Shown here: positions 1 to 16,468 of the stretch, in pieces
Layout: each line of letters begins with the position of its first letter
Numbering within the stretch: position 1 is the stretch's first letter
Source of the DNA: an uncultured virus (IMG/VR IMGVR_UViG_3300029309_000009)
Taxonomy: Duplodnaviria > Heunggongvirae > Uroviricota > Caudoviricetes
Length of the DNA: 23,884 bases
Virus record (IMG/VR): IMGVR_UViG_3300029309_000009
Span: 62,001 to 85,884 of that record
Direction: 5' to 3' (one strand)
Translations under genes and position numbers: made by a program
The notes under the pieces: generated by a model
Seen by the model: only the letters and a program-made list of their open reading frames with translations
The model's database searches: none
Told to the model about the DNA's origin: nothing

Positions 1-2
1 AG

Positions 3-440
3 GAGTTAAGCCAAACCATTTCTAAGTTAGAAAGAGAATTATCTTTACCTAAACCGATTAAAAATAAAATTAAAAGGGTAACTAAAAAATTTGACGCTAA
101 CGTATTAGAGGCAGACGAATATAGAGAATATATTACTACTCTTACTTCTTATGAAAGAATATTAATGCAAGTAGGCAGAATGATAGGTAAGGAGATAAAA
201 GAAATGAAATCTTACTTAACTAAAAATCAAAACGCTTTAGAAAATACTGCCGATTATTTTATTCGGCTGGCAAATTCTACCGATGAAGAAGAAAACGAAG
301 AAAATTTAGGAATTGTTAGGAGATTAAATAGAAAGACTTTAACTGAATCTGACTTGGAAGAAATACAGGAGAACATATCTGAAGCACTTCAGTTGAGAAG
401 AAAAATAATCAATATAACTGAAAAAGCAAAGGAGGAATAG
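3..440 (+). CDS. Hypothetical charged helical protein, 5'-truncated by the window edge
   Basis: The frame of the 165..440 ORF is open back to base 3 (ELSQTISKLERELSLPK...), so the true start lies upstream of the window. Confidence 0.75.
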   Translation, partial: ELSQTISKLERELSLPKPIKNKIKRVTKKFDANVLEADEYREYITTLTSYERILMQVGRMIGKEIKEMKSYLTKNQNALENTADYFIRLANSTDEEENEENLGIVRRLNRKTLTESDLEEIQENISEALQLRRKIINITEKAKEE

Positions 441-442
441 TT

Positions 443-781
443 ATGACTTGGGATTGGTATGGAGATATTTTAAAAGATGAAGGAAAAATATTGGCTTCAT
501 TAGATAAAAAGGAAAGAAAGGCGTTAAAGAAAACCCTTCAATCCGCAGAACCTAGTGAATATTTTGGTCAAGATTTTACTAAATTAGGGGAACTTTTAGA
601 TATGATTAAAGAGTTAGATTTGGTTAAAACAGATAAGACATTATCTAAGAAGTTAGAAACAATGGATGAGGCCAACTTAGATATATTAGCCACAGCCAGC
701 AAACTTCGTAAAGAGTATGAAGTTCTTTATAGACAAATTAGAAAAATAGTATATCCAAAAAGAGGAGGAGATTTAAGATGA
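443..781 (+). CDS. Hypothetical helical protein with MTWDWY-GDILK leader (putative head-associated)
   Basis: SD GGAGG upstream; N-terminal motif shared with the ORFs at 1017 and 1286. Confidence 0.8.
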   Translation: MTWDWYGDILKDEGKILASLDKKERKALKKTLQSAEPSEYFGQDFTKLGELLDMIKELDLVKTDKTLSKKLETMDEANLDILATASKLRKEYEVLYRQIRKIVYPKRGGDLR

Positions 782-1017
782 CAGAAATAAATGAAGAAAT
801 AGTAATGTTACTAAAGACATTAGTAGAGAGAGTTCAGCAATTAGAAAAGGTAGCATATAATGATGACAATGTTTTAATGAAGTCGGGATTTGTTGTTACT
901 AATAGCCCTACCCCATCAATGAATAACAAAGCCGCTTCTGCATTTTCTATGGATAGTGTGGCTAATATGTCCTTTGAAGAAATGGCTAAAATAATTGAAA
1001 AGGCAGGTGGAAGATAA
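778..1017 (+). CDS. Small scaffold-like protein (coiled coil plus scaffold-type C-terminal motif)
   Basis: SD GAGGAGG; ATGA overlap with the previous gene; SMDSVANMS matches SMDDVANMS at the C-terminus of the protease-scaffold. Confidence 0.75.
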   Translation: MTEINEEIVMLLKTLVERVQQLEKVAYNDDNVLMKSGFVVTNSPTPSMNNKAASAFSMDSVANMSFEEMAKIIEKAGGR

Positions 1018-1280
1018 TGACTTGGGATTATTATAATGATAAAGAAATAAAAAAGAGCGAAACTTATAGTATGGTTATGTCTGTAAGTGTTCTTCTAGAA
1101 AAAGATGGCGAACAGGTAGAGGCACACGAACTTAATATTTCTGAAAGGGAGTTGCATGGAATAGTTCAAGATATTCTAAAACAGGCTAAAGGCACAAGAT
1201 ATTCTACTGAAGTAGAAGATGATGAAGGGGAAGAAACTCTTATCGAAGTGACTATTGAAGATGTTTCAGAAAATAGGTGA
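1017..1280 (+). CDS. Small acidic protein with MTWDYY...IKKS leader
   Basis: SD AGGTGG; TAATG overlap; shared leader motif. Confidence 0.75.
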   Translation: MTWDYYNDKEIKKSETYSMVMSVSVLLEKDGEQVEAHELNISERELHGIVQDILKQAKGTRYSTEVEDDEGEETLIEVTIEDVSENR

Positions 1281-1285
1281 GTGAA

Positions 1286-1525
1286 ATGACTTGGGACTAT
1301 TACAATATTAAGAAAGAAGAAGAAACACTTACTTCTAGTAATACTATTACTGATTCTAGAAGTGCTGATTCTTATTTGTCTATGAGAACTCGACTAAACA
1401 AAGCGTTTGATGCTATTTATGATTTAATCAATCCCCTTGTAGAGCAAGAAGTTTTGGACTATCAAGAAGATTTAATGGAATTTACAAGAGTAGTGGATAA
1501 AATTATGAAAAAACTAGGTGAGTAA
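1286..1525 (+). CDS. Small acidic protein with MTWDYYNIKK leader
   Basis: SD AGGTGA at 1275-1280 favours the ATG at 1286 over the GTG at 1277; shared leader motif. Confidence 0.75.
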   Translation: MTWDYYNIKKEEETLTSSNTITDSRSADSYLSMRTRLNKAFDAIYDLINPLVEQEVLDYQEDLMEFTRVVDKIMKKLGE

Positions 1526-1526
1526 A

Positions 1527-1892
1527 ATGCCGGAAAGAATGACAAAAGAAGAAGCAAAAATACAGCGAGCAATCGAAGCCGCTAGAATAGCAAAGCAAAC
1601 TCTACTAGAAGAAACAAGGGATAGAATGCCACTAGAGGTAGAAGAAGATTTAGTTAAGGTTACTAGACCAAAGGCTGAAAATGTTACTATTAAAATTCCT
1701 AATCAAGATAAGGAAGGCTACGGTCTTGCAGGTGTAGAGAAGGATTATACAATTAAAAAATCTGATTCTAGATTCATAATGTCAGAATTTGCCGAGATGG
1801 ATGAAGATGAATTGAGAAGTATGGTTATGGAAAAAATAGAAAACATGACTAAAATGGAATTAGTAGAAATTCTAGAAAATTATAGATTGTGA
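1527..1892 (+). CDS. Hypothetical protein with internal YTIKKS motif and acidic helical C-terminus
   Basis: SD AGGTGA at 1516-1521 precedes the ATG at 1527. Confidence 0.75.
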   Translation: MPERMTKEEAKIQRAIEAARIAKQTLLEETRDRMPLEVEEDLVKVTRPKAENVTIKIPNQDKEGYGLAGVEKDYTIKKSDSRFIMSEFAEMDEDELRSMVMEKIENMTKMELVEILENYRL

Positions 1893-1898
1893 TGCTCT

Positions 1899-4421
1899 AT
1901 GTCACTAACCGGCCTTCTATTTGAGAAGGAAACTGAATCCGTTTCTGATAAAATTCTCTCGCTCTTTGAAAAAACTAGAGTGGCTTATTTATCTGCTAAA
2001 AGCGACCCTAAGAATTACGGTTCTAGGTGGAGAAAAACAATCGAGAATTTAAGAGATGAATATGATAATCTAGATTACATAGGAGGACAACTAAAACAAT
2101 ATTTGGCCGAAGATATTCTAGAAAGAAAAGACGCTATGAATCCCGAAAGCCCTATTGCTGGAAAAATATACAACGCAATCAAAATGCTTAGATTTGAATC
2201 TGAAGAAGTTCAAGACCCATTTGCTAAAAGATTCAAAGGTGATGTATTAGAAGCATTACTAACAGATAGCGGAGTCATGATTAAATTTATCCACTATGCT
2301 TTAAGAAGCGATGATGAAATCCTACCCGATGAACTTTATTCTATCAAAGATATAGAGCCGGATGATATAACCGTTGGTCTAAAAGGTTTAGACTTAGACC
2401 CTAAAGATATTCCTCTTTACATAACGGAACATTATGGCGATGGTAAAAATTCTAAAAAAATAGAATCTAAATTTAAGAACGGCCTATCTCTCTTAAAATT
2501 ATTTTTCTTATCTAAAAATACTGAAGAAGAATGGAATAATCTGATGGGGATACGGCTTAACAAATCTATAATTAAAGCAGAAAAGTCTCAAGAAGAAAAA
2601 GCAGAAGTAGATTTTATAATACCTAATAAACCGATGTATAGAATTTTTGAGATAGAAGATATGAATGAACTACAAGGTTTTAGTGGAGAGTATGTCATTC
2701 AAGAAAAATATGATGGTATGAGAATACAAATTCATAAAATAGATGATAGGGTCAAGATTTATTCTTATAACGAAAAAGACATTACAGAAAAATGTCAAAA
2801 ACAAGTTGAGATAATGAAGAAAAAACAATTCGGTGATTGTATTTTAGATGCTGAACTTATACTATTTGATGGTGATGATTCCTTACATAGGGCGGATACT
2901 ATTGCTCATGTATTCAAAAATCAATATCAAGATGCAGAATTAAAGGCGCACGTATTTGACATAATGAGACACGAAGAAAGAAACATGGCTGCTGAAGAAT
3001 TAGGAGAGAGAATAAATATTTTATTTAATAATTATTCTATGCACTCGGATGAATACTTACAGTTTCCTTCTAAGAAAGATACTAGAATAGCAGATAATAT
3101 GAAAGACATAAAAGAATATAGCGAGACTATTATGGAAATGCCCACTGCTGAAGGCGTAGTAATAAAAGATATTACTTCTACTTATTATATAGGAACAAAG
3201 AAAAATCCTAAGTGGATTAAATGGAAAAAATTTGTTGATTTAGATTTGATAGTCTTAGATAAAAAGAAAACTAAGTCAAATATGTTTTCATATTCTTTAG
3301 GTGCGGGGCCAGCAGAAGGAGATGGAAAATACATTAAAGTCATAGACAAAATAAAGTATATGAATGTGGGTAAGGCTAATAATACCAAATTAGTTTTAGA
3401 TATTGGGGATATTTTGAGAGTTAAAGTAGATGAGGTAAAATTTAGCGGAGATAGATATACTATTTATGGCGCAAATCCCATTGAAATACCAGAAGTAGAA
3501 TATCCCGATAAAATAGTAACTTTAGAAATGCTTTCTAAAGAAACCAAACCTACATTAAAATTCAAAACTAAGGCATTAGAGAAGGGCATACTAATTACGG
3601 ATTATGTTCATGGTGAAGCAATACTAAAATCTATGGATGGCTTTTCTTTATATGAATTTGAAAGAGATAATTTAATGTCTAAACACGCTATGATGAATTT
3701 AAGTTCTTGGAAGTCTGACGCTGAAAATATAATGAAAACTAAACAAAGCGAATTAACTGTGGCAGTTTTTCAACAATTAAAAGAAAAAGGGCCAATTAAT
3801 ATTAAAGACTTGCATAATTTTCTAATTAAAGAACATGGCAGATTATACGACAATGTATTAGAAAGTAAAAAGGATAGGCTAATAGATTGGTTTGATAATA
3901 GAGATGGAATAACCTATAATAATAGAGAAAAAAAGTTTATTGCTGATTCAGATAAAATAATGTTAGCAGAAGAAGAATATAAAACTCCTCCGGAATACAG
4001 AAAGGGACTATTCAAAGTGTATTCTAGAAAAGATGACAATCTTACCTTTGCTATAAAGTTATTAGACGAAACATTATATTGGACTATTGACATTAATTCT
4101 GATGATGATATTTTTGACTTATTTGGAAAGGCAGGAAAGTTCCCTGCCGAAGTAGCAACTAATATATCTCCGGATTCTAAAGTCATAGACGAAGGAGATA
4201 TAACTTTAGGAGTTCAAAGAGATGGCTACCATGAGTATTTTATCAAGGGGAATAAATTTGAAACTAAAATGCACTATCGAATTGTTCCCGTAGAAGATAG
4301 AAAAATATGGTTGGTTTGGACTGGATTCAAACAAAGTCCTGCGGATAAAGAAGGAGATGAAGGTTTGTGGAATATTAATGAAGATAAATATTCAAAGTTG
4401 CTAATAAATCCGGAAAAATGA
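1899..4421 (+). CDS. lig: ATP-dependent DNA ligase with long N- and C-terminal extensions
   Basis: Nucleotidyltransferase motifs I (QEKYDGMRIQIH), III (ILDAEL), IIIa (HVFDIM), IV (EGVVIKD) and V (WIKWK), followed by an OB-fold-like segment (DLDLIVL...GDILRVKVDEV). Confidence 0.92.
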   Translation: MSLTGLLFEKETESVSDKILSLFEKTRVAYLSAKSDPKNYGSRWRKTIENLRDEYDNLDYIGGQLKQYLAEDILERKDAMNPESPIAGKIYNAIKMLRFESEEVQDPFAKRFKGDVLEALLTDSGVMIKFIHYALRSDDEILPDELYSIKDIEPDDITVGLKGLDLDPKDIPLYITEHYGDGKNSKKIESKFKNGLSLLKLFFLSKNTEEEWNNLMGIRLNKSIIKAEKSQEEKAEVDFIIPNKPMYRIFEIEDMNELQGFSGEYVIQEKYDGMRIQIHKIDDRVKIYSYNEKDITEKCQKQVEIMKKKQFGDCILDAELILFDGDDSLHRADTIAHVFKNQYQDAELKAHVFDIMRHEERNMAAEELGERINILFNNYSMHSDEYLQFPSKKDTRIADNMKDIKEYSETIMEMPTAEGVVIKDITSTYYIGTKKNPKWIKWKKFVDLDLIVLDKKKTKSNMFSYSLGAGPAEGDGKYIKVIDKIKYMNVGKANNTKLVLDIGDILRVKVDEVKFSGDRYTIYGANPIEIPEVEYPDKIVTLEMLSKETKPTLKFKTKALEKGILITDYVHGEAILKSMDGFSLYEFERDNLMSKHAMMNLSSWKSDAENIMKTKQSELTVAVFQQLKEKGPINIKDLHNFLIKEHGRLYDNVLESKKDRLIDWFDNRDGITYNNREKKFIADSDKIMLAEEEYKTPPEYRKGLFKVYSRKDDNLTFAIKLLDETLYWTIDINSDDDIFDLFGKAGKFPAEVATNISPDSKVIDEGDITLGVQRDGYHEYFIKGNKFETKMHYRIVPVEDRKIWLVWTGFKQSPADKEGDEGLWNINEDKYSKLLINPEK

Positions 4422-4440
4422 TAAACTATTATATACCTAA
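4421..4440 (+). promoter_or_regulatory. Putative archaeal-type TATA promoter for the head genes
   Basis: A-rich stretch then TTATATA (4429-4435) in one of the few intergenic gaps, about 30 nt before ATG 4465. Confidence 0.45.
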
Positions 4441-4464
4441 TAGAAAAACAAGGGGTTGAGGAAA

Positions 4465-5676
4465 ATGGAAACTTCCGTTATGATAGCGAAAGAAAATGAC
4501 TTCCAAATACTCAAAGCACAAGACGATTTAATGATTGGAGGATATGCAAGCATAGAAATCGTGGATAAGCAAAATGATTTAATCACACTCAAAGCACTAC
4601 AAGAAGCAGTAAACAAATATATGGAGAATCCAAAATATAGAAATGTAATGACAAACCATTCAAATGTTCAAGTAGGAGAAGTAGTAAAAGAATATAGAGA
4701 TAAAAATGGAAAACTATGGAAAACAGAAGTAGATGATGTAGGATTTTTTGTAGTGATAAAATTAAGAGATGACATAGAAAAAGCAAAGGAAATAAACAGA
4801 GGGATTCGCAAAGGAACATTAAGGTCTTTTAGCATAGGGGGACAGGCACTTCGGAAAGTTAAGAAGCAAAATTCGGAATTAGGCGAATACAGCGAAATTA
4901 GCAAACTAGAATTACACGAAGTCACCATATGCGAAAAAGGAATTAATCCTGAAGCGAAATTTGATATTTTGAAACAAGAAAAAGAGGAGAAAAATATGAG
5001 CGATAAACTAGAAAAAGCACTTGCGGAACTTGACACTTTATTGGAAGAAGTCAATACCTTGAGGAAGGAAGAAGAAAAAGAAATGTATGGAAAGGAAATG
5101 TCTATGAAAGAAGATGAGAAAATGGAAGAAAAAGAAATGTCCATGAAAGAAGATGAAGAAATGATGGATATGAAAGAGACTATGGAATACATGGATGACG
5201 AAGCAAAAGCACAGCCGGATTTGGGCGCAGGAGTTATAGAACATGGCAACCCTGACGACAGAGTAGTTATAAGCGGTGGAAAACCCGTAGGAGAAAAGCA
5301 AGCAAAAGTTGTAAAGGCTTTTGACAATGCAGAAATTTCTACATTAAATCTATCTCCGGAAATTGTAGAGAAATCTTTCCAGCAATACAAGGCAGAAAGA
5401 CTAGAAGCAATTGCTCTAGAGAATCTAGAGAAAACCTTTGAGAGTCGCTTTGAAAACGAAGTATCTCAAAGAGAATCTATGATTGCAAAGAATAACTATG
5501 ATGCAAGGTCAGAAGTTAGCGCACTAAAGGAAGAATTGGCAGACCTAAGAAAGTCATTTTCTTCAGAAAAAGAAACTATTCTCAAAGCACAGCAAACACA
5601 ATCTGTTGCTCTACCATCTATGGATGATGTAGCAAACATGTCTTGGGCAGACTTAAACAGGCTCGCTGGAAATTGA
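4465..5676 (+). CDS. HK97-type prohead protease fused to a C-terminal scaffold
   Basis: GGYASIEIVDKQND, MTNH (His), RSFSIGG (Ser) and LHEVTICEKGINPEA fit the caudoviral prohead protease pattern. The C-terminal half is acidic coiled coil. Lies directly before the MCP. Start may be 4456 (TTG) or 4465 (ATG). Confidence 0.9.
   Translation: METSVMIAKENDFQILKAQDDLMIGGYASIEIVDKQNDLITLKALQEAVNKYMENPKYRNVMTNHSNVQVGEVVKEYRDKNGKLWKTEVDDVGFFVVIKLRDDIEKAKEINRGIRKGTLRSFSIGGQALRKVKKQNSELGEYSEISKLELHEVTICEKGINPEAKFDILKQEKEEKNMSDKLEKALAELDTLLEEVNTLRKEEEKEMYGKEMSMKEDEKMEEKEMSMKEDEEMMDMKETMEYMDDEAKAQPDLGAGVIEHGNPDDRVVISGGKPVGEKQAKVVKAFDNAEISTLNLSPEIVEKSFQQYKAERLEAIALENLEKTFESRFENEVSQRESMIAKNNYDARSEVSALKEELADLRKSFSSEKETILKAQQTQSVALPSMDDVANMSWADLNRLAGN
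4996..5676 (+). CDS. Putative nested in-frame scaffold protein (internal start)
   Basis: GAGGAG at 4984-4989 precedes an in-frame ATG at 4996 (MSDKLEKALAEL), just after the end of the protease domain. Confidence 0.6.
   Translation: MSDKLEKALAELDTLLEEVNTLRKEEEKEMYGKEMSMKEDEKMEEKEMSMKEDEEMMDMKETMEYMDDEAKAQPDLGAGVIEHGNPDDRVVISGGKPVGEKQAKVVKAFDNAEISTLNLSPEIVEKSFQQYKAERLEAIALENLEKTFESRFENEVSQRESMIAKNNYDARSEVSALKEELADLRKSFSSEKETILKAQQTQSVALPSMDDVANMSWADLNRLAGN
5092..5169 (+). repeat. 39-nt in-frame tandem duplication (KEMSMKEDE x2) in the scaffold
   Basis: aaggaaatgtctatgaaagaagatga at 5092 and aaagaaatgtccatgaaagaagatga at 5131. Confidence 0.85.
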
Positions 5677-5689
5677 GGGGGAATAAAAA

Positions 5690-7033
5690 ATGACAGGATA
5701 CATTAACACAATTAGAGACTTAGAACTAGAGACATATGGATATGGTGGCGCATTTGGCGGAAACGATATTCTAAAGCAAGCAGGAGTTACGCAAGGAATT
5801 TTCACTCCACACGATATTGCTGATGCCGGTGCAAGTGGCGTTACCGGAATTTCTAACACAACAGGACTTTACAATGTTCTTTATGGGCAGAAAGTTTGGT
5901 CAATGTTGAATAGAGAAGTAAACGCTCTTTCTATGATTTCAAAGAGACCTTATTCATCTTCCGGATGGAGAGTTCTAAAGAGCCGACCTTTCGGTGGTTC
6001 CGGAAACACACTCGCTGAAGGACTACAAAGAGATGGAAGCGGAGGAGGAATTGGTGCTGATGATGCACAATTTGATGAGATTGGTGGAGTTGCTGAAAAT
6101 GCAGGACTTTCTACTGCGGCAGATGGTCTAGGTTCTATGGCTCCAACATATGCTCAACTATTTATGAGTCCTAAAACAATTGCACACCAATTTGACTTCT
6201 CGGAGTTGGCTATGGAAATGGCAAAGATTGACGATGGAATAGGAGATATTAGGGCGCAACTTCGTGAAGATATGGGAATTGCCCACGCAGAAGCACAGAA
6301 TATGATGCTCTTAACTCCTCTAGAAAACTATGGTGAGTCATCTGCGCTATCTAACATTGAGAGAAACTATACTTCTCTAAACAAGATAGTTACAAGTCGT
6401 GCGGAACTTTTGGCTATTGATGGCGGTGTTATCGCTTCCGATGCTACAAGTGCATCAAACAATTTGGGTAAAATATTTGGTGAAGAAAGACACACTGCTG
6501 CTTCATTCCTAGATTCTGAAGTAGATTTCGGAAGCGGATATGCTAGTGGCGATGTTCGTGCTTTCACACTAACTCTACTAAATAACATGATTCGCAACCT
6601 ACGAATTGCTGGCGGTTCTCCAAAGGTTATTCTTACAGGATACGATACTATACAGGCAATTGCAGATTTGTTGCAAAGCCAAGAAAGATTCATGGATAGA
6701 AAGGAAATTGTCCCTACTGTAAATGGAGTTCGTGGAGTAAAAGGACAAGAAGTTGGATTTAGAGTAGCGACTTACTACGACATTCCACTAATTCCTTGTA
6801 AAGATATGGCTTCTACTGGCGGTGCTTCTACTAAACTAAGCGATTTGTTATTCTTAGATACAGACCATCTTTGGCTATCTGTTATGAGACCAACACAATA
6901 CTTTGAGGATGGTATTTCTAATGGAAACCCATTCGGTGTTGGCAGACTAGGAAACCAAGCACTTTACCGAACAATTGGAGAAATGGGCTGTTCATTCTTT
7001 AAGGGTCAAGGAAAGATTACCAACATTCAGTGA
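5690..7033 (+). CDS. Major capsid protein (HK97 fold)
   Basis: 447 aa, follows the protease-scaffold, SD GAGGGG. HK97-like elements include FMSPKTIAHQFDFSELA, PKVILTG, TYYDIPLIP and LLFLDTDHL. Confidence 0.88.
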   Translation: MTGYINTIRDLELETYGYGGAFGGNDILKQAGVTQGIFTPHDIADAGASGVTGISNTTGLYNVLYGQKVWSMLNREVNALSMISKRPYSSSGWRVLKSRPFGGSGNTLAEGLQRDGSGGGIGADDAQFDEIGGVAENAGLSTAADGLGSMAPTYAQLFMSPKTIAHQFDFSELAMEMAKIDDGIGDIRAQLREDMGIAHAEAQNMMLLTPLENYGESSALSNIERNYTSLNKIVTSRAELLAIDGGVIASDATSASNNLGKIFGEERHTAASFLDSEVDFGSGYASGDVRAFTLTLLNNMIRNLRIAGGSPKVILTGYDTIQAIADLLQSQERFMDRKEIVPTVNGVRGVKGQEVGFRVATYYDIPLIPCKDMASTGGASTKLSDLLFLDTDHLWLSVMRPTQYFEDGISNGNPFGVGRLGNQALYRTIGEMGCSFFKGQGKITNIQ

Positions 7034-7043
7034 GGTGTTTTGA

Positions 7044-7394
7044 TTGACACACACTGTAACACTGTTGGCTGACCATAAAGGACAGACAAGACCTAGAGTT
7101 TCCGGAGATGAATATTTCGTAGATGCAAACATTGAGATTACTTCATACACAGAAGATGGAGAAGTAATTTCTGCGTCTTCTCTAGGACTAAGCACAATCA
7201 ATGCAGTTATGATTACGGGTGCTGAAACAGCGTCCGGAGTTGCCACTGAAAGATTCGTTGTGGAATTAAGCACTGCGGGTGCTTATGAAAGTGCAAGTTC
7301 TTTCTCTCTAGTAGGAACTACTGCTAGTTCGGGTGCTGAATCGGGTAATTCTGATTTGGGATTCATTAGAGTAAGAGTTTACGGAAACCTTTGA
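7044..7394 (+). CDS. Putative capsid decoration or minor head protein
   Basis: SD GAGGTG with TTG start; beta-rich, Ser/Thr/Gly-rich, 116 aa, directly after the MCP. Function inferred from position. Confidence 0.55.
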   Translation: MTHTVTLLADHKGQTRPRVSGDEYFVDANIEITSYTEDGEVISASSLGLSTINAVMITGAETASGVATERFVVELSTAGAYESASSFSLVGTTASSGAESGNSDLGFIRVRVYGNL

Positions 7395-7404
7395 GGTGAA
7401 ATAA

Positions 7405-7788
7405 ATGGCTAAGATTATTCTTAGTGAGACTTCTGTAATGGGAAGGTTGAGAATTGGGCGAGAAGAAATCACAAGAGAAGTTTCTTGTGAAATCTCCGCA
7501 CTAAAAGGTCTGCTAAAAATGCAAGACCCCAATCTTCTCATTACATTTGAAGAATCAGATGAAGAAGAATTACTAGGCTTAGATGATAAAATTTTAGAAA
7601 TATCTCAAAGAGTTTTAAATTTATCAGATATACCTAAAGGTTCTGATTTAGTTGCTCTACTTCTACCTAAGAAAAGTGTGGCAAAGAAAGCAAAAACCAC
7701 TGCTAAAAAGGCCGCTAAAAAGGTAAAAGATACAGTAGTTCCATCGAAAACTGAAGAAATTGTAGAGGAATCTCCGGATTCTGAATAA
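7405..7788 (+). CDS. Hypothetical protein with Lys/Ala-rich low-complexity tail
   Basis: SD GAGGTGA; KKSVAKKAKTTAKKAAKKVK followed by an acidic end. Confidence 0.75.
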   Translation: MAKIILSETSVMGRLRIGREEITREVSCEISALKGLLKMQDPNLLITFEESDEEELLGLDDKILEISQRVLNLSDIPKGSDLVALLLPKKSVAKKAKTTAKKAAKKVKDTVVPSKTEEIVEESPDSE

Positions 7789-7836
7789 CCAATATCTTCA
7801 AGTATCATTGATGTAACGACTATATGAGGAGATAAT

Positions 7837-8172
7837 ATGGATACTTGTAGGTCAAGTGGAGTTTTAACTGCATCTGCTGTTATAGCGGCTCATCAATGTA
7901 GATTAAAGAGCATACATTTCAGCGTTTTTGCCGGTGGCCCTGATGTTGTTACTATCAAAGTTTTTGATTCTAAAGATTCAACTTTGACAGGAAATACTGA
8001 ATTGGCTAGACTTGTGGTTTCTAAATCTGATGTTTTTCAAGTCGGAGTAACAAATGTAGAATATGATATGCACGGAGTTTTGGCTAGAGAAGGACTCTTT
8101 CTTCAAATTACAAATAGTGAAGGAACCCCTGATGGTGCAACATTTCATGCAGTTTCCGTAGAATTTAATTGA
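7837..8172 (+). CDS. Putative small beta-sandwich virion protein
   Basis: SD GAGGAG; alternating beta-strand pattern (CRLKSIHF, VVTIKVFDS, GLFLQIT, AVSVEFN). Confidence 0.6.
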   Translation: MDTCRSSGVLTASAVIAAHQCRLKSIHFSVFAGGPDVVTIKVFDSKDSTLTGNTELARLVVSKSDVFQVGVTNVEYDMHGVLAREGLFLQITNSEGTPDGATFHAVSVEFN

Positions 8173-8181
8173 GTTGATAAA

Positions 8182-8577
8182 ATGCCAGCATTACAACATG
8201 ATACTAGATTAGTTATGACTATCTTATTTGTAGGGACAGTTAGCGGAGCAAATGTTTTCTTTTATGCTAGTTATGGGACTAGTTTCCCTTACACTACATT
8301 ATCCCATGCAACCTTATTTGGACTTATTACAGTAGGAGCAATAATGATTCTGAAAGCAGTTTTTGATTTAGCACTAAACGAAAAAATAGAAATGTATTTG
8401 CTAGACAGAAGGGTTAATCACTTTTGGGCGCAAAAGAGAAAAGAAGAAGAACAAAAGGGAAAGATTCGTGAAACGATGAAGAATTATACTACAACGTATA
8501 ATACACAACCTCAATTTTCTTCTCAAATGGATACAGACGGAATAGGAAATGAATTTTTAGCGGCTATCGAACAGTGA
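8182..8577 (+). CDS. Membrane protein with two predicted TM helices and a charged coiled-coil tail
   Basis: Hydrophobic segments LVMTILFVGTVSGANVFFYA and ATLFGLITVGAIMILKAVF, then QKRKEEEQKGKIRE. Confidence 0.8.
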   Translation: MPALQHDTRLVMTILFVGTVSGANVFFYASYGTSFPYTTLSHATLFGLITVGAIMILKAVFDLALNEKIEMYLLDRRVNHFWAQKRKEEEQKGKIRETMKNYTTTYNTQPQFSSQMDTDGIGNEFLAAIEQ

Positions 8578-8587
8578 GGTGAATCCT

Positions 8588-8806
8588 TTGGTTTTTACCG
8601 GCTTTGATGAAAGTGCAATGGCCTATGATTTACAAAGGGCGCATTCTGCTGATATTTGGTTTCTTAAATTTAGAGCATATTTTTGGGGAACTTGTGCGGC
8701 TTTGTCGGGTTTTCTAATAGGAAATATTCTAGGAGTTTTTGATATAAATATTCTAGGATGGATTTTAAATTCTACACAGGATGCTTGGGAATATACATTT
8801 GGGTGA
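8588..8806 (+). CDS. Small membrane protein
   Basis: SD GAGGTGA (8576-8582) favours the TTG at 8588; hydrophobic FWGTCAALSGFLIGNILGVFDINILGWIL. Confidence 0.75.
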   Translation: MVFTGFDESAMAYDLQRAHSADIWFLKFRAYFWGTCAALSGFLIGNILGVFDINILGWILNSTQDAWEYTFG

Positions 8807-8812
8807 TTGGAT

Positions 8813-9475
8813 GTGTCAGTCCTTGCAGGTTTCGCAATAGTAGTTACTGAAGCAGCAATAGCATTTTACAAAAGAATACATGCTATAAATTTCGGTGTTT
8901 ATGGTGCTACTAAAGTAGGCAAAACTACTTTGCACCATCAGTTAAGAACTAGAGGTGAAGTTCCCGATATTAAAAAAAGAACTGTTGGACTACATAGGGG
9001 AACTAGAAAAACCATAAAACTAGATGGAGAAACTCACACTTTGAAAACGGCTGATGTTGGGGGAGAATCTTTCTATTGGAAAGAATGGATAAAAGATATG
9101 CGAAAGCGTAAAGTGAATTATATTATTTTTATGATAGACCATAGACATTTAGAAAGTTCTGCAAATTTAGACCATCAATTAGCATGGAAATTTTTAGTAG
9201 ATGCAATATGTTCTTCTACTTGGCCCGATGGAAAAAAGAAAAAAGAAGCAGACTATCCTATGGCTATTGGTATTTGGGCTAACAAATATGATTTGTGGGG
9301 AAAGCGTTATTCTCATGAAGGGGAAATACAAAATCACCCCATCTACGAGCCTTTTAAATATGGGATGCAAAAATTAAATGATAAAGGAATACCTACTTTC
9401 AAGTATATCGTATCGGCTAAGTCTCAGCCCGAAATGGTTTACAAAGGAGTTACAACAATGATAAAGGACTACTGA
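8813..9475 (+). CDS. Arf/Sar-like small GTPase (Ras superfamily) with hydrophobic N-terminal helix
   Basis: G1 GATKVGKTT, G2 RTVG, G3 DVGGE, IIFMID strand, G4 WANKYD, G5 SAK. SD GGGTGA (8801-8806) favours the GTG at 8813. Confidence 0.88.
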   Translation: MSVLAGFAIVVTEAAIAFYKRIHAINFGVYGATKVGKTTLHHQLRTRGEVPDIKKRTVGLHRGTRKTIKLDGETHTLKTADVGGESFYWKEWIKDMRKRKVNYIIFMIDHRHLESSANLDHQLAWKFLVDAICSSTWPDGKKKKEADYPMAIGIWANKYDLWGKRYSHEGEIQNHPIYEPFKYGMQKLNDKGIPTFKYIVSAKSQPEMVYKGVTTMIKDY

Positions 9476-9480
9476 TTAAA

Positions 9481-10122
9481 ATGTATCAACAGAACATAAT
9501 AGATAGACCAACATTTACTGCACCTTCGGCATTTTTACCGCCTTTGCAGAGAGCAAGAGCAAGTGGCCCCGTAGAGGAATATAAGTGCGTTAATATTAAA
9601 CCCAAAAAGCAATTGAAGGAACTAGTTAAAGTTCTATATCCGGAAAAAAAATCATTTTTAAAAATTAAATATGGTAATAAATTTAATTTAAAAGATAGGT
9701 GCGTAGTTTGTGGAATGCACCACGTTTGGGATAGTGGAGATTACATGAGACCACCTATTCCTCTAACACAAGTATTGAAGGGTAGGCCCATGAGAGGAAC
9801 TTATTGTCCTAAACATGCAGGTATTCACAGACAAATGGAAATGCTTCAGCAACAAATTTTGGCAGAACAACATGGATTAGAATTTAAGGCATTTATTCCT
9901 AAAATGCCAAAGTTATCAAGAAAAGGCCCATTGAATACCTTAACCAAAGAAGATGTAGTCTCTCTTTCTAATGCCGGATGGCTTATTAAACCGCCCACAT
10001 TAGGAGATAATAAGTCGGCTACTGATGAGGCGATTGAGATAGTAGGAGAAATAAATATTCTTACGGATAGATTAAATCATCTTATAATACAAAAAGGGGC
10101 AAAAGTAGAGGGAGAGGACTAA
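9481..10122 (+). CDS. Putative Zn-binding protein
   Basis: CVVC...YCPKH Cys/His ligand pairs; basic and Pro-rich. Confidence 0.7.
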   Translation: MYQQNIIDRPTFTAPSAFLPPLQRARASGPVEEYKCVNIKPKKQLKELVKVLYPEKKSFLKIKYGNKFNLKDRCVVCGMHHVWDSGDYMRPPIPLTQVLKGRPMRGTYCPKHAGIHRQMEMLQQQILAEQHGLEFKAFIPKMPKLSRKGPLNTLTKEDVVSLSNAGWLIKPPTLGDNKSATDEAIEIVGEINILTDRLNHLIIQKGAKVEGED

Positions 10123-10123
10123 A

Positions 10124-10771
10124 ATGTTAGGGACAAGTAACAAGACAGTTTTGGGTGCTGTTCAAGCACAAGGAGACCAGCAATTCAAGAATGTAAATAA
10201 TTTACTTTCTTTACAAGATAACCATGTAGAGGAATTTTTTCAATATCACGGAGATAAATTTTTGAAAAGTTTAGAGCAACTTATGGAAGATGTTACTGAG
10301 AGAGTAGTAAGCAGAATGCTTTCTAAACTTCAGTTAGTCCAAGATGATACTACTAAAACAATAAAGGTTCATCCCGATGCTCTTAGAGAATATGAAGGAA
10401 TTACTTCTGCTAATATTGAGTTAGATGTTATGAATTTGTTAAATTCTGCGATAGATTCAGAGGTTATTAATCAAAGAAAGATGGCTAAGTCTCAATTCCT
10501 AGAGTCTCAAGGATTTAGCGGAGGGCAGCAACAAGTTGGAGTAGGTTTAGCAGTAGCAGGTTTGACAGGACAAACTCAACAATATAATCAAGTTCAATCG
10601 GCAGTAGGAAACGGTTCAGGTTTCCCTATACCTCCTAGTGGTCAAGACATGTATGGGAGACCATATTGGTTAGATGCAAACGGTCAAGCATCATATGAAG
10701 CACCAAAGTCCGGACTTGGATTAGGTTCTAAAATACAAAAAACTGCTGCTTGGGCTAAATGGTTAATGTGA
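10124..10771 (+). CDS. Hypothetical protein: helical N-terminal half, Gly/Gln-rich C-terminal half, amphipathic C-terminus
   Basis: SD GAGAGG; ends GLGLGSKIQKTAAWAKWLM. Confidence 0.8.
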   Translation: MLGTSNKTVLGAVQAQGDQQFKNVNNLLSLQDNHVEEFFQYHGDKFLKSLEQLMEDVTERVVSRMLSKLQLVQDDTTKTIKVHPDALREYEGITSANIELDVMNLLNSAIDSEVINQRKMAKSQFLESQGFSGGQQQVGVGLAVAGLTGQTQQYNQVQSAVGNGSGFPIPPSGQDMYGRPYWLDANGQASYEAPKSGLGLGSKIQKTAAWAKWLM

Positions 10772-10772
10772 G

Positions 10773-12251
10773 TTGATTACTTTGCCTACTAAAGTAATTG
10801 GTTTTGATGGCAGTATTGCCAATTGGCCTACTGACTATATAGATATAATAAGAAATACAGTTACAGGTAAAGATGGAGAAAGGTTTTCATTAGAAGGAAG
10901 TAAAAATATATCTACCCTTGCTCAAAATTCACAAATAAGTAATTTGATTGAATTTGATAATGATTCATTTGTAGAAGAAGGATTAGAAATATTGAAGGGA
11001 ATTGAGAATGAAAAAATATTAACTTTAGCAAAAGAAGGAAATCCTTCCGCAGTTTTATATAGAGATTTAGAAAGAAGTAGAATATTTGATGATGTTAAAG
11101 ATTTTACATTGAAAGATATGGAAGATTCAGATAATCTCTTAAAAATTATAGGTTATAGTTTATTTGGTAAAGTTACTGATAAAGAACCCGAAGAAGAAAT
11201 TGGCCTATATGAAGAATATGCGGATACACCGGCTGCTCAAAGATATGTAGAATCGTTTAGAAATATTCCGCAAACTGAAGCAGAAGGTAGAGATGCTCCA
11301 AATTTACCTGCTATGTTCATGACTAATAAGTATGAACCGATTGAAACCTTCACACTTAGAAGAAGAAAAATAGATACGTTAGATGAACATTACGAAGTAG
11401 AAATAAAAAGAGCATCCTCTAGTGATAAGGTTTCAGAATTTTTCTATTTTAACTATGATAATACTTCACAAAGAAGAAATTTTTTAGAAAGATTTTATCC
11501 TAATCTAGTTTATAAAACAACAGGAAAAGATATTTTAGACTCTACTAGAGCCGTTTCGCCAAATGTTTTGAGTGGGGATATTACCATTAATCTTGATTTT
11601 TATGAAAAACTAATAAAAAACGGAAAGTATGTTAAAGCCACCGAAGCACAAAAAATATTAAGTGATTTTTTGCAAGATGAATTTTATAAAAAGTTCTTTT
11701 TCAAGTTTAAGAAATTTTTAGAAGAATCTAATAAGGCTGACCCTCTTAGAGATGAAAAATACAAAGTATATTTTTCAGGAACTCTTAGAAAAATTCCTGT
11801 TAAGGATGCTACGCCTAAAACATTTAAGGTCAAAGTAAAAATACAATCAGTGGAAAAAGGAAGATTTGACATTAGCCCCTTTGCTAAGAATATAAGAAGA
11901 AAAGGTAAGAAACCTAATATTGATGTTATTTTACAACAGGAAATAAAAAATAGATTGGTTGCTCCTAAAGATGTTTATATGCAAGCAGTAGAGGAATATA
12001 TAGATAAGGAAAATGAACTATCAAATCTAAGCGATGAAGATACAAAACAACTTGAAGGTCAAAATATAGAGGTAGGTAAACTGCAAGAAATAATACGGGA
12101 AAGTAAAGAATCCGCTACAAAAAGAATGCAGGAATTTGAAGAATACTCTCAACGTAGAGAGTATAGATTTAATGAAAGATTAGCAGACCACATAGAAGAA
12201 ATAATGGATAGATTCTCTGTTGTAGAAAATGCAATAAAGGAGGGTGCTTGA
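10773..12251 (+). CDS. Hypothetical 492-aa charged protein
   Basis: Long ORF filling the gap between neighbours; no motif recognised; start codon uncertain. Confidence 0.75.
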   Translation: MITLPTKVIGFDGSIANWPTDYIDIIRNTVTGKDGERFSLEGSKNISTLAQNSQISNLIEFDNDSFVEEGLEILKGIENEKILTLAKEGNPSAVLYRDLERSRIFDDVKDFTLKDMEDSDNLLKIIGYSLFGKVTDKEPEEEIGLYEEYADTPAAQRYVESFRNIPQTEAEGRDAPNLPAMFMTNKYEPIETFTLRRRKIDTLDEHYEVEIKRASSSDKVSEFFYFNYDNTSQRRNFLERFYPNLVYKTTGKDILDSTRAVSPNVLSGDITINLDFYEKLIKNGKYVKATEAQKILSDFLQDEFYKKFFFKFKKFLEESNKADPLRDEKYKVYFSGTLRKIPVKDATPKTFKVKVKIQSVEKGRFDISPFAKNIRRKGKKPNIDVILQQEIKNRLVAPKDVYMQAVEEYIDKENELSNLSDEDTKQLEGQNIEVGKLQEIIRESKESATKRMQEFEEYSQRREYRFNERLADHIEEIMDRFSVVENAIKEGA

Positions 12252-12252
12252 A

Positions 12253-13374
12253 ATGCCAACCGTATTTTCCCCAAGCGACTACACTACAATTAATCCGGAT
12301 TATTCTACCGGAAAAGGATTCTATACAGATAAAGACGCTATCTCTGATTTACTACAAATACCTGCATTTACAGCAGGGACAAATCCTACTCAAGCGCAGG
12401 TAGGTTCCATCATAAAAAGAGTAGAGGGAATGATTGATGATAAAGTCAAAAGGTCTTATCGCCCCATCCGACATGAACATGAAGTTCATAATTTTAATTT
12501 TAGTAGAAATCCAGCAGATTCTTATTTTGGAGGATATGTAGGGTTTGTTCAATTGCAACACATGAAAGTTAGAAAGATTGTTAGCCTACAAGTTTGGCAA
12601 GGTAATGCGTATAAAGAATTAGCATCTGCTCAAGCAAGTATAGAAATTTTAGACCATTCTAAACTAAATACAATAGTATTGACACTTCCCGATGGTTCTA
12701 CAACTTTTACATTAAATGCTAGTAATAGCGTAGGAACGTCTTTATCTGATTCTAATTTTAATAAAAAGTTTGGAAATAAAACTACTGCTAAAGAAATTGT
12801 TGCTTTAATTAATGAGCAGTTCCCTTCCAAAACCTTTTCATTTACAAAAGCAGATAATAGAAAAAGTCTAACCGAAGATGGAGGAACCGATTATGATATT
12901 TCTGATTTCTTTTATGCAAGCACTGACCCCGACAATGGAACTAAAATAAATATATCTTCTTTACTAGAAGGCGAGGATGGTTCAGAATGTTCAATAGTTG
13001 CGACTGTTACAGCAGGAAGTGTTGCTGATTCTATTTTAGTTGAAGGATTTACCGATAGACAAGATATGAAAAGATTAGGAAGTTTCTTTAAAATTGGAAA
13101 CGAAGGTCGTTTGTTTTTCTTGAAAGACTATCCATACCATACAGAAAATTCTGTAATCGTTTCGTATATTGCAGGAGATTCTAGAGTTCCTTCCGCAATA
13201 CATGAAGCCGCTACTAAATTAGCAGCAGCAGAAATTTTAAGACATGATGACCAAACTATTCTAATTGCAGAAACAGGAGCAAATATAACTACTAAAGAAA
13301 AATATGATATTCTTAAAACTGAGGCTATGGCAATTCTAGATGGCAAGAAAGATGTAGTGTATATTATTGAGTGA
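12253..13374 (+). CDS. Head-tail adaptor (SPP1 gp15/HK97 gp6-like) with a large inserted domain
   Basis: N-terminal YTDKDAISDLL...IIKRVEGMIDD and C-terminal VSYIAGDSRVPSAIHEAATKLAAAEIL fit the adaptor pattern; SD GGAGGG before ATG 12253. Confidence 0.7.
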   Translation: MPTVFSPSDYTTINPDYSTGKGFYTDKDAISDLLQIPAFTAGTNPTQAQVGSIIKRVEGMIDDKVKRSYRPIRHEHEVHNFNFSRNPADSYFGGYVGFVQLQHMKVRKIVSLQVWQGNAYKELASAQASIEILDHSKLNTIVLTLPDGSTTFTLNASNSVGTSLSDSNFNKKFGNKTTAKEIVALINEQFPSKTFSFTKADNRKSLTEDGGTDYDISDFFYASTDPDNGTKINISSLLEGEDGSECSIVATVTAGSVADSILVEGFTDRQDMKRLGSFFKIGNEGRLFFLKDYPYHTENSVIVSYIAGDSRVPSAIHEAATKLAAAEILRHDDQTILIAETGANITTKEKYDILKTEAMAILDGKKDVVYIIE

Positions 13375-13378
13375 TAAT

Positions 13379-13585
13379 ATGTTTGAAGACATTAGCCAAA
13401 AGTTTGAAAAATATCTAGAAATAGAAAAGGAAAGAAATTTACAAATGCTTGAAGTTTCTAGATTATTAGGAGTAGACTTTACTTTTTCAGAAGAAGAACT
13501 AATTAAAAATGTAGAGCAAAAGATAGCAGACTATATGGAGAAAACTTTACAAGAAAAATTCAAAAAAATGGTTGAGGGAATATAA
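13379..13585 (+). CDS. Small helical hypothetical protein in the neck region
   Basis: ORF bridging adaptor and terminator with a TAATG overlap; start 13367 or 13379. Confidence 0.65.
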   Translation: MFEDISQKFEKYLEIEKERNLQMLEVSRLLGVDFTFSEEELIKNVEQKIADYMEKTLQEKFKKMVEGI

Positions 13586-14094
13586 TGGATGAAGTTAGTT
13601 TACTCATTGACCTTTTAGATAGCAATTGGTCAAGTTCTGCCACTACTTTACAAAGCGCAGGAACTATTACTTCAGACCATATTGGTAAGCCTAATATTAT
13701 TGACATAAGAAATTTAGATGTAAATAGGGGTAGTCGCTATGATTTATCTTTAAAAGATTTAATTGTAATTTTTGAAGATAGCCAAACAATAGAATATCCT
13801 ACCGTTCATTTTGACATAAGAAATGAAAACTATTCTTTTACACTTCATATTAGAACTGTTCAAGATGAGAGAGCAGGAACAGATGGAGATTTTGGCAAAG
13901 ATAGGCTAAGGGCTTTATACTTGATAACTCGTCATGTGCTTGAGGGGAAGCGAACAGGATATACTGCATCGGATGGTTCTAAGTTTAATCAAATATTTGT
14001 AGGCTCTAGAAATGAATCCAATGACAGGAAAAAAAGAATATTCGGATATAAGATTAGTATAGAAGCAAAAAGATTCGCACTCTCAGTCCCATAG
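13585..14094 (+). CDS. Putative tail terminator / tail completion protein
   Basis: 169 aa, directly before the tail tube; alpha/beta pattern (YSFTLHIRT...RLRALYLITRHVLE...FGYKISIEA). Confidence 0.6.
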   Translation: MDEVSLLIDLLDSNWSSSATTLQSAGTITSDHIGKPNIIDIRNLDVNRGSRYDLSLKDLIVIFEDSQTIEYPTVHFDIRNENYSFTLHIRTVQDERAGTDGDFGKDRLRALYLITRHVLEGKRTGYTASDGSKFNQIFVGSRNESNDRKKRIFGYKISIEAKRFALSVP

Positions 14095-14117
14095 TAAGTA
14101 AGTAAGGAGAGGGAAGA

Positions 14118-15734: not shown

Positions 15735-15739
15735 TTTTC

Positions 15740-15847
15740 TTGGATAAATATACTAAGAGAAGAATTATGGCAGAAAAACTCAAGGCTCCTAAGAAAAGAG
15801 GCCGACCAAAAAAAGAGGTAGTTAAAGAAGAAGAAACTACTGAATGA
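15740..15847 (+). CDS. 35-aa AT-hook microprotein (not in ORF track)
   Basis: SD GGGGTGA (15728-15734), TTG start, MDKYTKRRIMAEKLKAPKKRGRPKKEVVKEEETTE*; alternative ATG at 15767. Confidence 0.65.
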   Translation: MDKYTKRRIMAEKLKAPKKRGRPKKEVVKEEETTE

Positions 15848-15849
15848 TA

Positions 15850-15893
15850 TTCCACCAACACCGTTTGTTCGTTTGTTGGTTTTGTAGGTGGAA
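15850..15893 (+). promoter_or_regulatory. Potential RNA structure overlapping the RBS of the tail chaperone gene
   Basis: TTCCACC (15850-56) is complementary to GGTGGAA (15887-93); ACCAACA (15854-60) is complementary to TGTTGGT (15874-80). Confidence 0.45.
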
Positions 15894-15896
15894 AGA

Positions 15897-16265
15897 ATGT
15901 TAAACAAAAAAATAGTAAGTGACAAGAGTGTAATGTTTGCACTCTCAGAAGCAAAATGCCATTGGATAAAAGTTTCAGAGGATTCTGAAGAATATCTAAA
16001 AGTATGGATTAAAGACCCTACTTGGCTAGAAGTAGAAAAAGCAGTGAACTCTTTAATGAACATTGATGCTAAGAATCAAAGTTTAGATATTGATTTAAAT
16101 AAAATGTATCGCTATATGGTTGATAATTTTATTACAAAAACTGAGCCTTCTTTATCTACGGTTGATTTAATTAGACTCAATCCCTATATTGGTAATCAAA
16201 TAAAAGAAATACTTCCTAATCCCTTTGAATTAATGTCGGGGGATGAAGAAAAAAACGCAAATTGA
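15897..16265 (+). CDS. Tail assembly chaperone (lambda gpG-like)
   Basis: Between tube and tape measure; SD AGGTGG then ATG 15897; ends at a slippery site. Confidence 0.75.
   Translation: MLNKKIVSDKSVMFALSEAKCHWIKVSEDSEEYLKVWIKDPTWLEVEKAVNSLMNIDAKNQSLDIDLNKMYRYMVDNFITKTEPSLSTVDLIRLNPYIGNQIKEILPNPFELMSGDEEKNAN
16250..16256 (+). other. Programmed -1 ribosomal frameshift site A AAA AAC
   Basis: X XXY YYZ heptamer in the correct phase (GAA AAA AAC GCA AAT TGA); the -1 frame continues RKLRRAVRRGEG into ORF 16262..16468. Confidence 0.8.
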
Positions 16266-16468
16266 GGCGAGCAGTTAGGCGAGGTGAAGGAGATACCTCA
16301 ACAGCAAGCCTCATAATAGTTTATACCTTAGCAAAAGCATTGGGAATAAATCCTTTAGAAGTATATGAGATGCCAGCACAACTAGTAATGGATATGCTAA
16401 CAATTCACGGCATAGTAGAAGAATATAAAGCGGAAGAACTAGAAAAGAAATCCAAGAAGGTGAAATAA
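16262..16468 (+). CDS. Frameshift extension of the tail assembly chaperone (gpT-like)
   Basis: In the -1 frame of the chaperone, no evident SD of its own; YTLAKALGINPLEVYEMP fits the gpGT C-terminal pattern. Confidence 0.72.
   Translation: MRRAVRRGEGDTSTASLIIVYTLAKALGINPLEVYEMPAQLVMDMLTIHGIVEEYKAEELEKKSKKVK

Follow-up and report, generated by a model that had tools for sequence, protein, structure and literature searches.

A small head-module protein of a magrovirus-like genome shares its C-terminal tail with the scaffold and may be an auxiliary scaffold

The stretch of DNA analysed here (the window; 23,884 nucleotides, nt) comprises bases 62,001-85,884 of the 85,884-bp viral contig IMGVR_UViG_3300029309_000009 of the IMG/VR database, has a contig G+C content of 34% and represents the late (structural) arm of a magrovirus-like genome. 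Magroviruses are globally abundant, uncultured tailed viruses assigned to Marine Group II archaea. Among the small genes of the head module in this window, open reading frame (ORF) 3, here termed ORF3, encodes a protein of 79 amino acids (aa), and sequence comparison confirms that its last ~20 residues are homologous to the C-terminal end of the scaffold, which is encoded downstream as part of a prohead protease-scaffold fusion. By analogy with known systems, ORF3 is about as likely as not to be an auxiliary scaffold or adaptor that the virus itself encodes and that docks on the capsid protein. The coordinates of ORF3, its parts and the related genes are given in Table 1.

The C-terminal match had been proposed in a reading of the letters and the ORF translations alone (the sequence-only reading), which placed it at nt 946 and nt 5617 with eight of nine core residues in common, and it is confirmed: in ORF3, nt 946 corresponds to S57 of SMDSVANMSFEEM, in the 406-aa ORF, nt 5617 corresponds to S388 of SMDDVANMSWADL, and the first nine tail residues of the two proteins are equal at eight positions. 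BLASTP of the two tails gives 8/16 identities and 13/16 positives (E 0.002, as a single comparison), while hhalign of A1, an alignment of 39 ORF3 orthologues, against A2, an alignment of 34 scaffold domains, pairs 22 columns from C-terminal end to C-terminal end (probability 95.6%, E 1.3e-8). The tail core reads M-[SD]-[WF]-x-[DE]-[ILM]-x-[KR]-hydrophobic-hydrophobic (x, any residue). In every clade and in both proteins the tail takes the form [IV]-x-x-[ML]-[SDNE]-W-x-[DEQ]-[ILVA]-[HND]-x-hydrophobic-hydrophobic, and the ORF3 tail of the window's own clade has F instead of W. The same reading had made its proposal depend on conservation of the motif in orthologues, and the tail is indeed kept in every orthologue examined, in deeply diverged clades and on both proteins.

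The tail is found on these two proteins only. A loose regular expression for it, run over the six frames of the 85,884-bp genome, matches the ends of ORF3 and the scaffold and nothing else, and a first hidden Markov model (HMM) of the motif recovers the ORF3 and scaffold tails of this genome with E values of 2.7e-6 and 4.9e-6, the next match having an E of 0.39. A wider motif profile of 122 distinct 16-residue windows, applied at E<=1 to 19,080 six-frame ORFs (160 loci and the whole genome), matches 141 scaffold C-terminal ends and 135 small-protein C-terminal ends, and no third class of protein carrying the motif was found among these ORFs. Between the motif and the C-terminal end there are 3-14 residues in these 141 scaffold ORFs and 135 small-protein ORFs, and in both proteins it occupies the extreme C-terminus of a scaffold-type protein predicted to be helical, as a scaffold-docking module does. 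When 83 distinct tail pairs were compared at identical residues, with M and W excluded, the codons were identical at 193/373 positions, which rules out gene conversion or DNA copying as the cause of the shared motif; as codons differ under identical residues, the motif appears to be kept by selection on the protein.

ORF3 is a real gene under purifying selection, with ratios of nonsynonymous to synonymous substitution rates (dN/dS) of 0.073, 0.097 and 0.118 in three close pairs; in another clade, for which 45 pairs were compared, the median is 0.177. Its ATG at 778 overlaps the stop codon of the upstream ORF (ATGA) and its stop codon TAA (1015-1017) overlaps the following ATG at 1017, so the small genes are tightly packed and probably translationally coupled. 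No Pfam-A and no PHROG family matches ORF3 at E<=0.01, and its neighbours in the Atlas are unnamed viral clusters. A word-indexed search identified 33 homologues among 36 candidates, and a length-free profile search of 1.84 billion representative proteins retrieved 49 ORF3-like clusters at E<=1e-3. Two of the latter, with matches in proteins of 6,905 and 1,051 aa, are spurious, their scores being summed from many 6-9-bit matches to internal repeats. The remaining ORF3-like proteins are 31-166 aa long, which argues for a stand-alone protein; a few of them are fused or extended (P0043, P0046, P0048 and P0058), and none is joined to the scaffold or the capsid protein. In metatranscriptomes (three runs of one study) the only contigs are short and cover portions of the scaffold and capsid genes, ORF3 being covered by none of them, an outcome that is neutral.

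The pairing of ORF3 with the scaffold gene was followed in two sets of loci. In the first set, for which the scaffold protein was the query, 130 of 133 IMG/VR candidate stretches are relatives and 80 loci were kept. An ORF3 orthologue is present in 50/80 of these, namely in 42/42 loci whose sequence extends 4.5 kb or more beyond the scaffold ORF on its upstream side and in 8/38 loci whose upstream sequence is shorter. In the second set, for which eight distant ORF3 relatives (A4) were the query, 242 of 401 stretches are relatives and 80 further loci were kept. All 80 of these contain an ORF3-like ORF and 75/80 a scaffold match, some of which are cut by contig ends, while a full scaffold ORF is present in 39/39 loci with at least 8 kb downstream of the ORF3-like gene. 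The two genes are always on the same strand, ORF3 mostly lying 2.5-4.1 kb upstream of the scaffold gene and 6.2 kb upstream in locus L157. Among adequately covered loci, the pairing of ORF3 and the scaffold gene is obligate.

In its predicted architecture ORF3 resembles a miniature of the scaffold, as both have a long helix, a linker and a short helix-turn-helix tail in the AlphaFold2 models. For ORF3 (A1; mean predicted local distance difference test score (pLDDT) 62.9), a helix at residues 6-35 is followed by coil at 36-57 and by helices at 58-62 and 66-76. The scaffold domain (A2; mean pLDDT 69.1) is predicted to comprise a helix at residues 2-70, a low-confidence acidic stretch, a helix at 125-205 (pLDDT >90), coil, and then helices at 213-217 and 221-228. 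The ORF3 helix, in which K13, L15, L22 and E23 are invariant, is probably an oligomerisation (coiled-coil) element. When the A1 profile was compared with all PDB chains, the best match had an E of 0.18, GCN4 coiled coils matched the N-terminal helix weakly (E 0.6-1.5), and no scaffold structure, and so no sequence homology to a solved scaffold tail, was found among the matches. The most conserved part of ORF3 is the central segment that follows, where L33, K35, G37, V39, P44 and P46 are invariant in 39 sequences and where the end of the helix and then coil are predicted.

The sequence-only reading had called ORF3 a paralog of the scaffold and had also noted a resemblance of its N-terminus to the region near the nested scaffold start. 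The letters are there, as LKTLVERVQQLEK of ORF3 and LDTLLEEVNTLRK of the scaffold are equal at 7/13 residues by eye, but the alignment is non-significant in a local hhalign of the N-terminal part (E 0.041, probability 1.3%). A better but still weak pairing joins residues 18-29 of ORF3 (RVQQLEKVAYND) to residues 136-147 in the middle of the long scaffold helix (E 0.0019, probability 14%). Resemblance of such size is expected, as both stretches are amphipathic helices. As the N-terminal pairings score weakly, homology is accepted for the tail alone; the term paralog therefore suits the last ~20 residues and not the N-terminal part.

The protein from which the scaffold derives contains a Peptidase_S78 domain (PF04586) on residues 25-178 (E 5.4e-9), matches PHROG head maturation protease families and extends ~230 residues further. 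From the sequence, ATG 4466 is a likelier start for it than TTG 4456. Just past the protease domain, the internal methionine encoded by ATG 4996 is conserved in 64/64 distinct scaffold domains. A Shine-Dalgarno-like 5-mer precedes this ATG in 45/55 distinct contexts, a count which overstates independence because the contexts come from related sequences, as compared with 68/741 other in-frame ATGs of the same genes, and this 5-mer is kept while the encoded residues vary. The internal ATG is thus probably the nested start of a protease-free scaffold protein, in agreement with the sequence-only reading, which had already assumed such a start.

The HK97-type capsid protein is encoded directly after the scaffold. 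Across all clades (71 distinct triples) there is hardly any variation in its N-terminal arm, M-x-G-Y-[IF]-x-T-[IM]-x-D-L-E-x-x-T-Y-G, which is presumed, by analogy, to be the receptor of the tails; near-invariance fits a conserved receptor. A pattern between tail and arm was seen by eye. All clades with the ORF3 tail [LI]-D-x-[LM]-V have the capsid N-terminal arm DLERATYG, mostly with a basic residue at position 6, and most clades with I-H-K-M-V have DLEA[QA]TYG. This pattern may be charge compensation, and it probably reflects one phylogenetic split; as the clades probably stem from that single split, it is a lead only.

The tail of the scaffold is most likely the peptide by which this protein, in the procapsid, docks on the inner surface of the capsid protein, as it is the best-conserved tip of the protein, helical, at the extreme C-terminal end, and as the scaffold is encoded just before an HK97-type capsid gene. 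On this analogy the scaffold tail would dock inside the growing capsid on the capsid protein, presumably on its N-terminal arm, and ORF3 would dock at the same site through its homologous tail. ORF3 would then enter the procapsid alongside the long scaffold and serve there as a short auxiliary scaffold or adaptor. If ORF3 forms oligomers, two of their tails could link adjacent capsid subunits in the manner of CpmB dimers, or, alternatively, the N-terminal or central part of ORF3 could hold a further partner. We infer tail-capsid binding, the entry of ORF3 into the procapsid, its oligomerisation and any effect on assembly by analogy with the systems compared below.

Judged by analogy, the closest counterpart of ORF3 is CpmB of the satellite SaPI1 in its relation to the scaffold of phage 80alpha, although ORF3 is not a member of the CpmB family. 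CpmB is a dimeric helical protein of 72 residues whose C-terminal motif is also present in gp46, the scaffold of 80alpha (Dearborn et al. 2017, PMC5644958). At near-atomic resolution, the tails of CpmB and the 80alpha scaffold are described as the same helix-and-hook bound to the same site on the N-terminal arm of the capsid protein (PMC5644958). Like CpmB, ORF3 is small (79 versus 72 aa), predicted to be helical and shares the extreme C-terminal motif of the resident scaffold; to the N-terminal oligomerisation part of CpmB may correspond the helix at residues 6-35 with its weak GCN4 matches. Unlike CpmB, which belongs to a satellite and redirects the helper capsid to a smaller size, ORF3 is a core gene of the virus itself. 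Its tail also differs from that of CpmB, as it has no similarity to the RIIK motif and is predicted to form a helix-turn-helix with an M-x-W core.

Nested protease/scaffold pairs with a common C-terminus are known from lambda (C/Nu3) and herpesvirus (UL26/UL26.5). As in these, two proteins of one virus here have a common, putatively capsid-docking C-terminal end. In lambda and herpesvirus one gene with two starts encodes both proteins, whereas ORF3 has a gene to itself, placed 3.4 kb upstream, and a diverged copy of the tail that selection maintains. The window also appears to have a nested pair of its own, owing to the internal ATG 4996. Elongated helical scaffolds are also known from P22 (gp8) and phi29 (gp7, which is small and dimeric); they bind the coat protein through a C-terminal helix-turn-helix or through their C-terminal residues, and, unlike ORF3, each of them is the sole scaffold of its phage. 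Short terminal peptides also serve as addresses. Encapsulin cargo-loading peptides are a short terminal address to the interior of an HK97-fold shell, and the capsid targeting sequence of T4 internal proteins is later removed by the prohead protease. This T4 sequence is N-terminal and directs the internal proteins to the scaffolding core (PMC3012670). The ORF3 tail is likewise a short terminal peptide, and a role as interior address would rest on analogy; unlike the T4 signal, the module is C-terminal and homologous to the end of the scaffold itself, and it sits on a protein of predicted scaffold-like architecture. ORF3 does not appear to carry the encapsulin cargo-loading consensus.

Several observations weigh against an auxiliary scaffold docking on the capsid protein. 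The AlphaFold2 models are of moderate confidence, with predicted template modelling (pTM) scores of 0.27-0.29, and nothing in the scaffold corresponds to the central segment, where ORF3 is most conserved. The polar positions of the two tails are not the same in several clades (LDSLV versus VHELM is one example), so identical contacts of both tails are not guaranteed. In the head modules of HVTV-1, HCTV-1 and vir335, a second ORF sharing the C-terminal end of the scaffold or protease was found in 0/3, which leaves the generality of such a second protein among annotated archaeal relatives without outside support. The portal, the scaffold core or the protease would be equally plausible targets of the tail. 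The sequence-only reading had proposed co-variation of the two tails across relatives as a check, and this was sought in the 107 of 161 sources (160 loci and the window) in which both tails were matched by the regular expression; each scaffold cluster was represented once, and same-genome tail pairs were set against cross-genome pairs. The observed score was reached by 771/20,000 permutations for 80% clusters (n=27), a marginal result, and by 10,319/20,000 and 16,673/20,000 permutations for 70% clusters (n=18) and 60% clusters (n=7), where co-variation was not found. At least two of the small ORFs picked by the regular expression (in loci L042 and L054) are false and are still included in these tests and in the codon comparison. 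The two tails have in common a conserved core, on which purifying selection acts in both proteins, and they do not co-evolve in lock-step; such a core is what a common receptor would produce, without proving one.

Two further groups of peptides were noted in this genome. Twenty ORFs, all on the + strand at genome positions 41,987-63,286 (the late region), carry a tag at the first methionine; sixteen of them start M-[STNK]-W-x-x-[ILV]-[LI]-K and four start MTWD[YW]Y, three of the latter lying around ORF3 in the window (443, 1017 and 1286). Across the fetched loci, MTWD[YW]Y occurs 51 times in 39/161 sources and always on the + strand. ORF3 itself is not tagged in this way, as it starts MTEINEE and has its W-motif at the C-terminal end instead. 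A second group of peptides consists of conserved [ILM]-[LM]-K sites. FDILK lies at the junction between the end of the protease domain and the scaffold (4966-4974; 64/64 sequences), ETILK lies ~30 residues before the scaffold end (5578-5586) and is conserved, N25, L28 and K29 of the capsid protein (5768-5776) and L33-M34-K35 of ORF3 (874-888) are conserved as well, and the N-terminal tags also end in ILK. From their sequences, the conserved sites may be cleavage sites of the prohead protease; such tripeptides are common in this proteome, and therefore only their conservation counts.

Both groups could be combined with the tail in a single peptide code, M-[ST/SD]-W-x-[DE]-[IL]-x-[KR], acting as a general address to the capsid interior in magroviruses and written in two ways, an idea which is doubtful and has a modest chance of being right. 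The code may stand at the C-terminal end of the scaffold and ORF3 and as the first eight residues of about 20 small variable proteins of this genome, and all carriers may compete for the invariant N-terminal arm of the capsid protein, while the head protease may cut labels and tethers at the [ILM]-[LM]-K sites. ORF3, as the only invariant short member, may then set the share of docking sites between scaffold and cargo, or the curvature of the shell. If this were true, ORF3 would be the built-in counterpart of the CpmB of satellites.

Among the rival explanations of ORF3 itself, it is unlikely, though the best placed of these alternatives, that the protein is cargo and the shared tail an address label which loads an internal protein into the head for carriage in the virion or delivery to the host. 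T4 internal proteins and encapsulin cargo are examples of proteins loaded into heads or shells. ORF3 does lie among small genes with the different, N-terminal tag MTWD[YW]Y, sixteen more ORFs of the genome start M-x-W-x-x-[ILV]-[LI]-K, and the first residues of the tag resemble the tail core. However, the motif HMMs of the tail miss the N-terminal tags at E<=1, ORF3 lacks such a tag, its helix-linker-tail plan mirrors that of the scaffold, and it is a strictly conserved core gene (42/42 loci) under strong purifying selection.

A little less likely again is the explanation that the tail docks on the portal, on the helical core of the scaffold or on the protease domain, ORF3 and the scaffold being co-recruited, for example to the portal vertex. 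The portal gene is 2.3 kb upstream of ORF3, and in several phages the genes that follow the portal gene encode minor head proteins which bind the portal (SPP1 gp7 and Mu F). On the other side, a scaffold must contact many capsid subunits, which fits its best-conserved tip, and the scaffold C-termini mapped in P22, phi29 and herpesvirus bind the capsid protein. The same is described for 80alpha (PMC5644958).

Quite improbable, and ranked below the two preceding explanations, is that ORF3 is a competitor or release factor on the docking site of the scaffold, which times the exit of the scaffold or prevents premature assembly, with the conserved L-M-K-[SA]-G as a prohead-protease site uncoupling the ORF3 helix from its tail. 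This would be consistent with the tail common to ORF3 and the scaffold, with the recurrence of the four conserved [ILM]-[LM]-K sites described above, and with CpmB, which competes with the scaffold (PMC5644958). The tripeptides are, however, frequent in a proteome rich in Lys, Ile and Leu, so that conservation alone speaks for them, and competition and co-scaffolding are hard to separate by sequence alone. That the resemblance arose by chance, or that ORF3 is a decaying, functionless partial duplicate of the scaffold gene, is scarcely credible, as the match, though short (~20 residues) and accompanied by a non-significant N-terminal likeness, reaches E 1.3e-8 in hhalign, its motif occurs on these two proteins only among the 19,080 ORFs, the residues are identical above synonymous differences, dN/dS is 0.07-0.18, and the gene is conserved in 242 IMG/VR stretches and 49 representative clusters.

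Table 1. Features of ORF3, the protease-scaffold gene and the surrounding head module (positions in the window unless marked as genome positions)
Feature	Position	Strand	Basis
Small gene ORF3, 79 aa, mini-scaffold-like head-module protein	778..1017	+	ORF listing, homologues, dN/dS
Shine-Dalgarno-like GAGGAGGAG, 7 nt before the ORF3 ATG	762..770	+	
ORF3 N-terminal amphipathic helix, residues 6-35	793..882	+	AlphaFold2, block pLDDT 62-79
ORF3 central segment D-N-x-L-M-K-[SA]-G-x-V-V-x-x-[ST]-P-x-P, residues 30-46	865..915	+	39-sequence alignment
ORF3 C-terminal module, residues 57-76, predicted short helix-turn-helix, shared with scaffold	946..1005	+	BLASTP, hhalign, AlphaFold2, motif HMM
Prohead protease-scaffold fusion, 406 aa from TTG 4456	4456..5676	+	Peptidase_S78 PF04586, PHROG
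GAGGAG (4984-4989) and internal ATG (4996-4998)	4984..4998	+	sequence, conservation in relatives
Scaffold C-terminal tip SMDDVANMSWADLNRLAGN, homologous to ORF3 tail	5617..5673	+	BLASTP, hhalign, AlphaFold2
Major capsid protein (HK97 type)	5690..7033	+	phrog_24667 major head protein E 1e-19; SU10_MCP E 1e-6
840-aa ORF with ATP-dependent DNA ligase domain	1899..4421		PF01068, E 1.1e-26, residues 260-443 only
577-aa coiled-coil protein	C-terminal end is the window's first ORF		by eye from translation
Portal	genome 58836-60464		by eye from translation
Homing-endonuclease-like ORF	genome, upstream of window		by eye from translation
Large terminase	genome 55289-56740		read by eye from translation

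The head module runs in the order terminase, portal, 577-aa coiled-coil protein, small genes including ORF3, ligase, protease-scaffold and capsid protein, where the ligase, protease-scaffold and capsid names come from Pfam or PHROG matches and the terminase and portal names were read by eye from the translations. Since it is flanked by the portal and protease-scaffold genes, ORF3 belongs to the head module by its position. Downstream of the capsid gene come those for the tail tube, chaperone and tape measure (Pfam/PHROG), and a family-B DNA polymerase, a primase, a second ligase and a GroEL-like chaperonin are found farther upstream (by eye from translations). The closest annotated capsid proteins are those of the haloarchaeal siphoviruses HCTV-1, HCTV-5 and HVTV-1 (23-25% identity). 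Published magroviruses have tailed-virus genomes of ~100 kb with a halovirus-like MCP (major capsid protein), portal and protease, archaeal replisome genes and a chaperonin (Philosof et al. 2017, PMC5434244), and a second ATP-dependent ligase and a LAGLIDADG nuclease are described within their structural module (PMC5434244). Judged from its sequence, the present genome is magrovirus-like, as its gene content matches this description, notably in the second ligase and the homing endonuclease of the structural module.

Some further observations were made in passing. The ligase gene is placed between the small head-module genes and the protease, and its 840-aa product has large regions on both sides of the ligase domain that match no family; the odd position of the structural-module ligase has been remarked on for magroviruses (PMC5434244). 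Between the head and tail genes, where it is unusual, a 222-aa ORF (8807-9475) carries the P-loop-like sequence GATKVGKT and has weak small-GTPase matches (Ras, Roc and MMR_HSR1; E ~1e-3, under the curated cut-offs). In the Methanomassiliicoccales virus Caudoviricetes sp. vir335 (locus L163), two adjacent hypothetical proteins (11676-13783) lie between the protease and the capsid gene, and in both a hydrophobic helix is followed by a terminal G-x-[AV]-C (…LLQSIGAVC and …GLRAHGGAC); their blastp-short comparison is non-significant. The first 60 bases of the contig reappear 366 bases before its end, and 190/366 ungapped positions are equal between bases 1-366 and 85,519-85,884 (23,519-23,884 of the window). 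This likeness may represent either circular closure or terminal redundancy across strain variants, or an internal repeat in a long fibre-like gene (19588 to the window end).

To our knowledge, the contacts between scaffold and capsid protein are described in atomic detail for a few cultured phages only, and the one well-studied second small protein which copies a scaffold tail is that of a parasite, CpmB of SaPI1. Here the virus itself keeps such a mini-scaffold-like protein as a core gene across globally abundant, uncultured archaeal viruses. No published account of such a small protein was found in the literature on magroviruses and scaffolding proteins, and the main text of the founding magrovirus paper, as distinct from its supplements, names only the MCP, portal, protease and terminase in its passages on the structural module (PMC5434244). 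If the tail docks on the capsid protein, it would provide a handle of ~20 residues for studying and engineering the assembly of archaeal HK97-type capsids, a natural system with two scaffolds in which to study how the size of large capsids is set, and a link to the system of N-terminal tags on many other proteins of these viruses. These questions can be tested by co-expression, without culture of the host.

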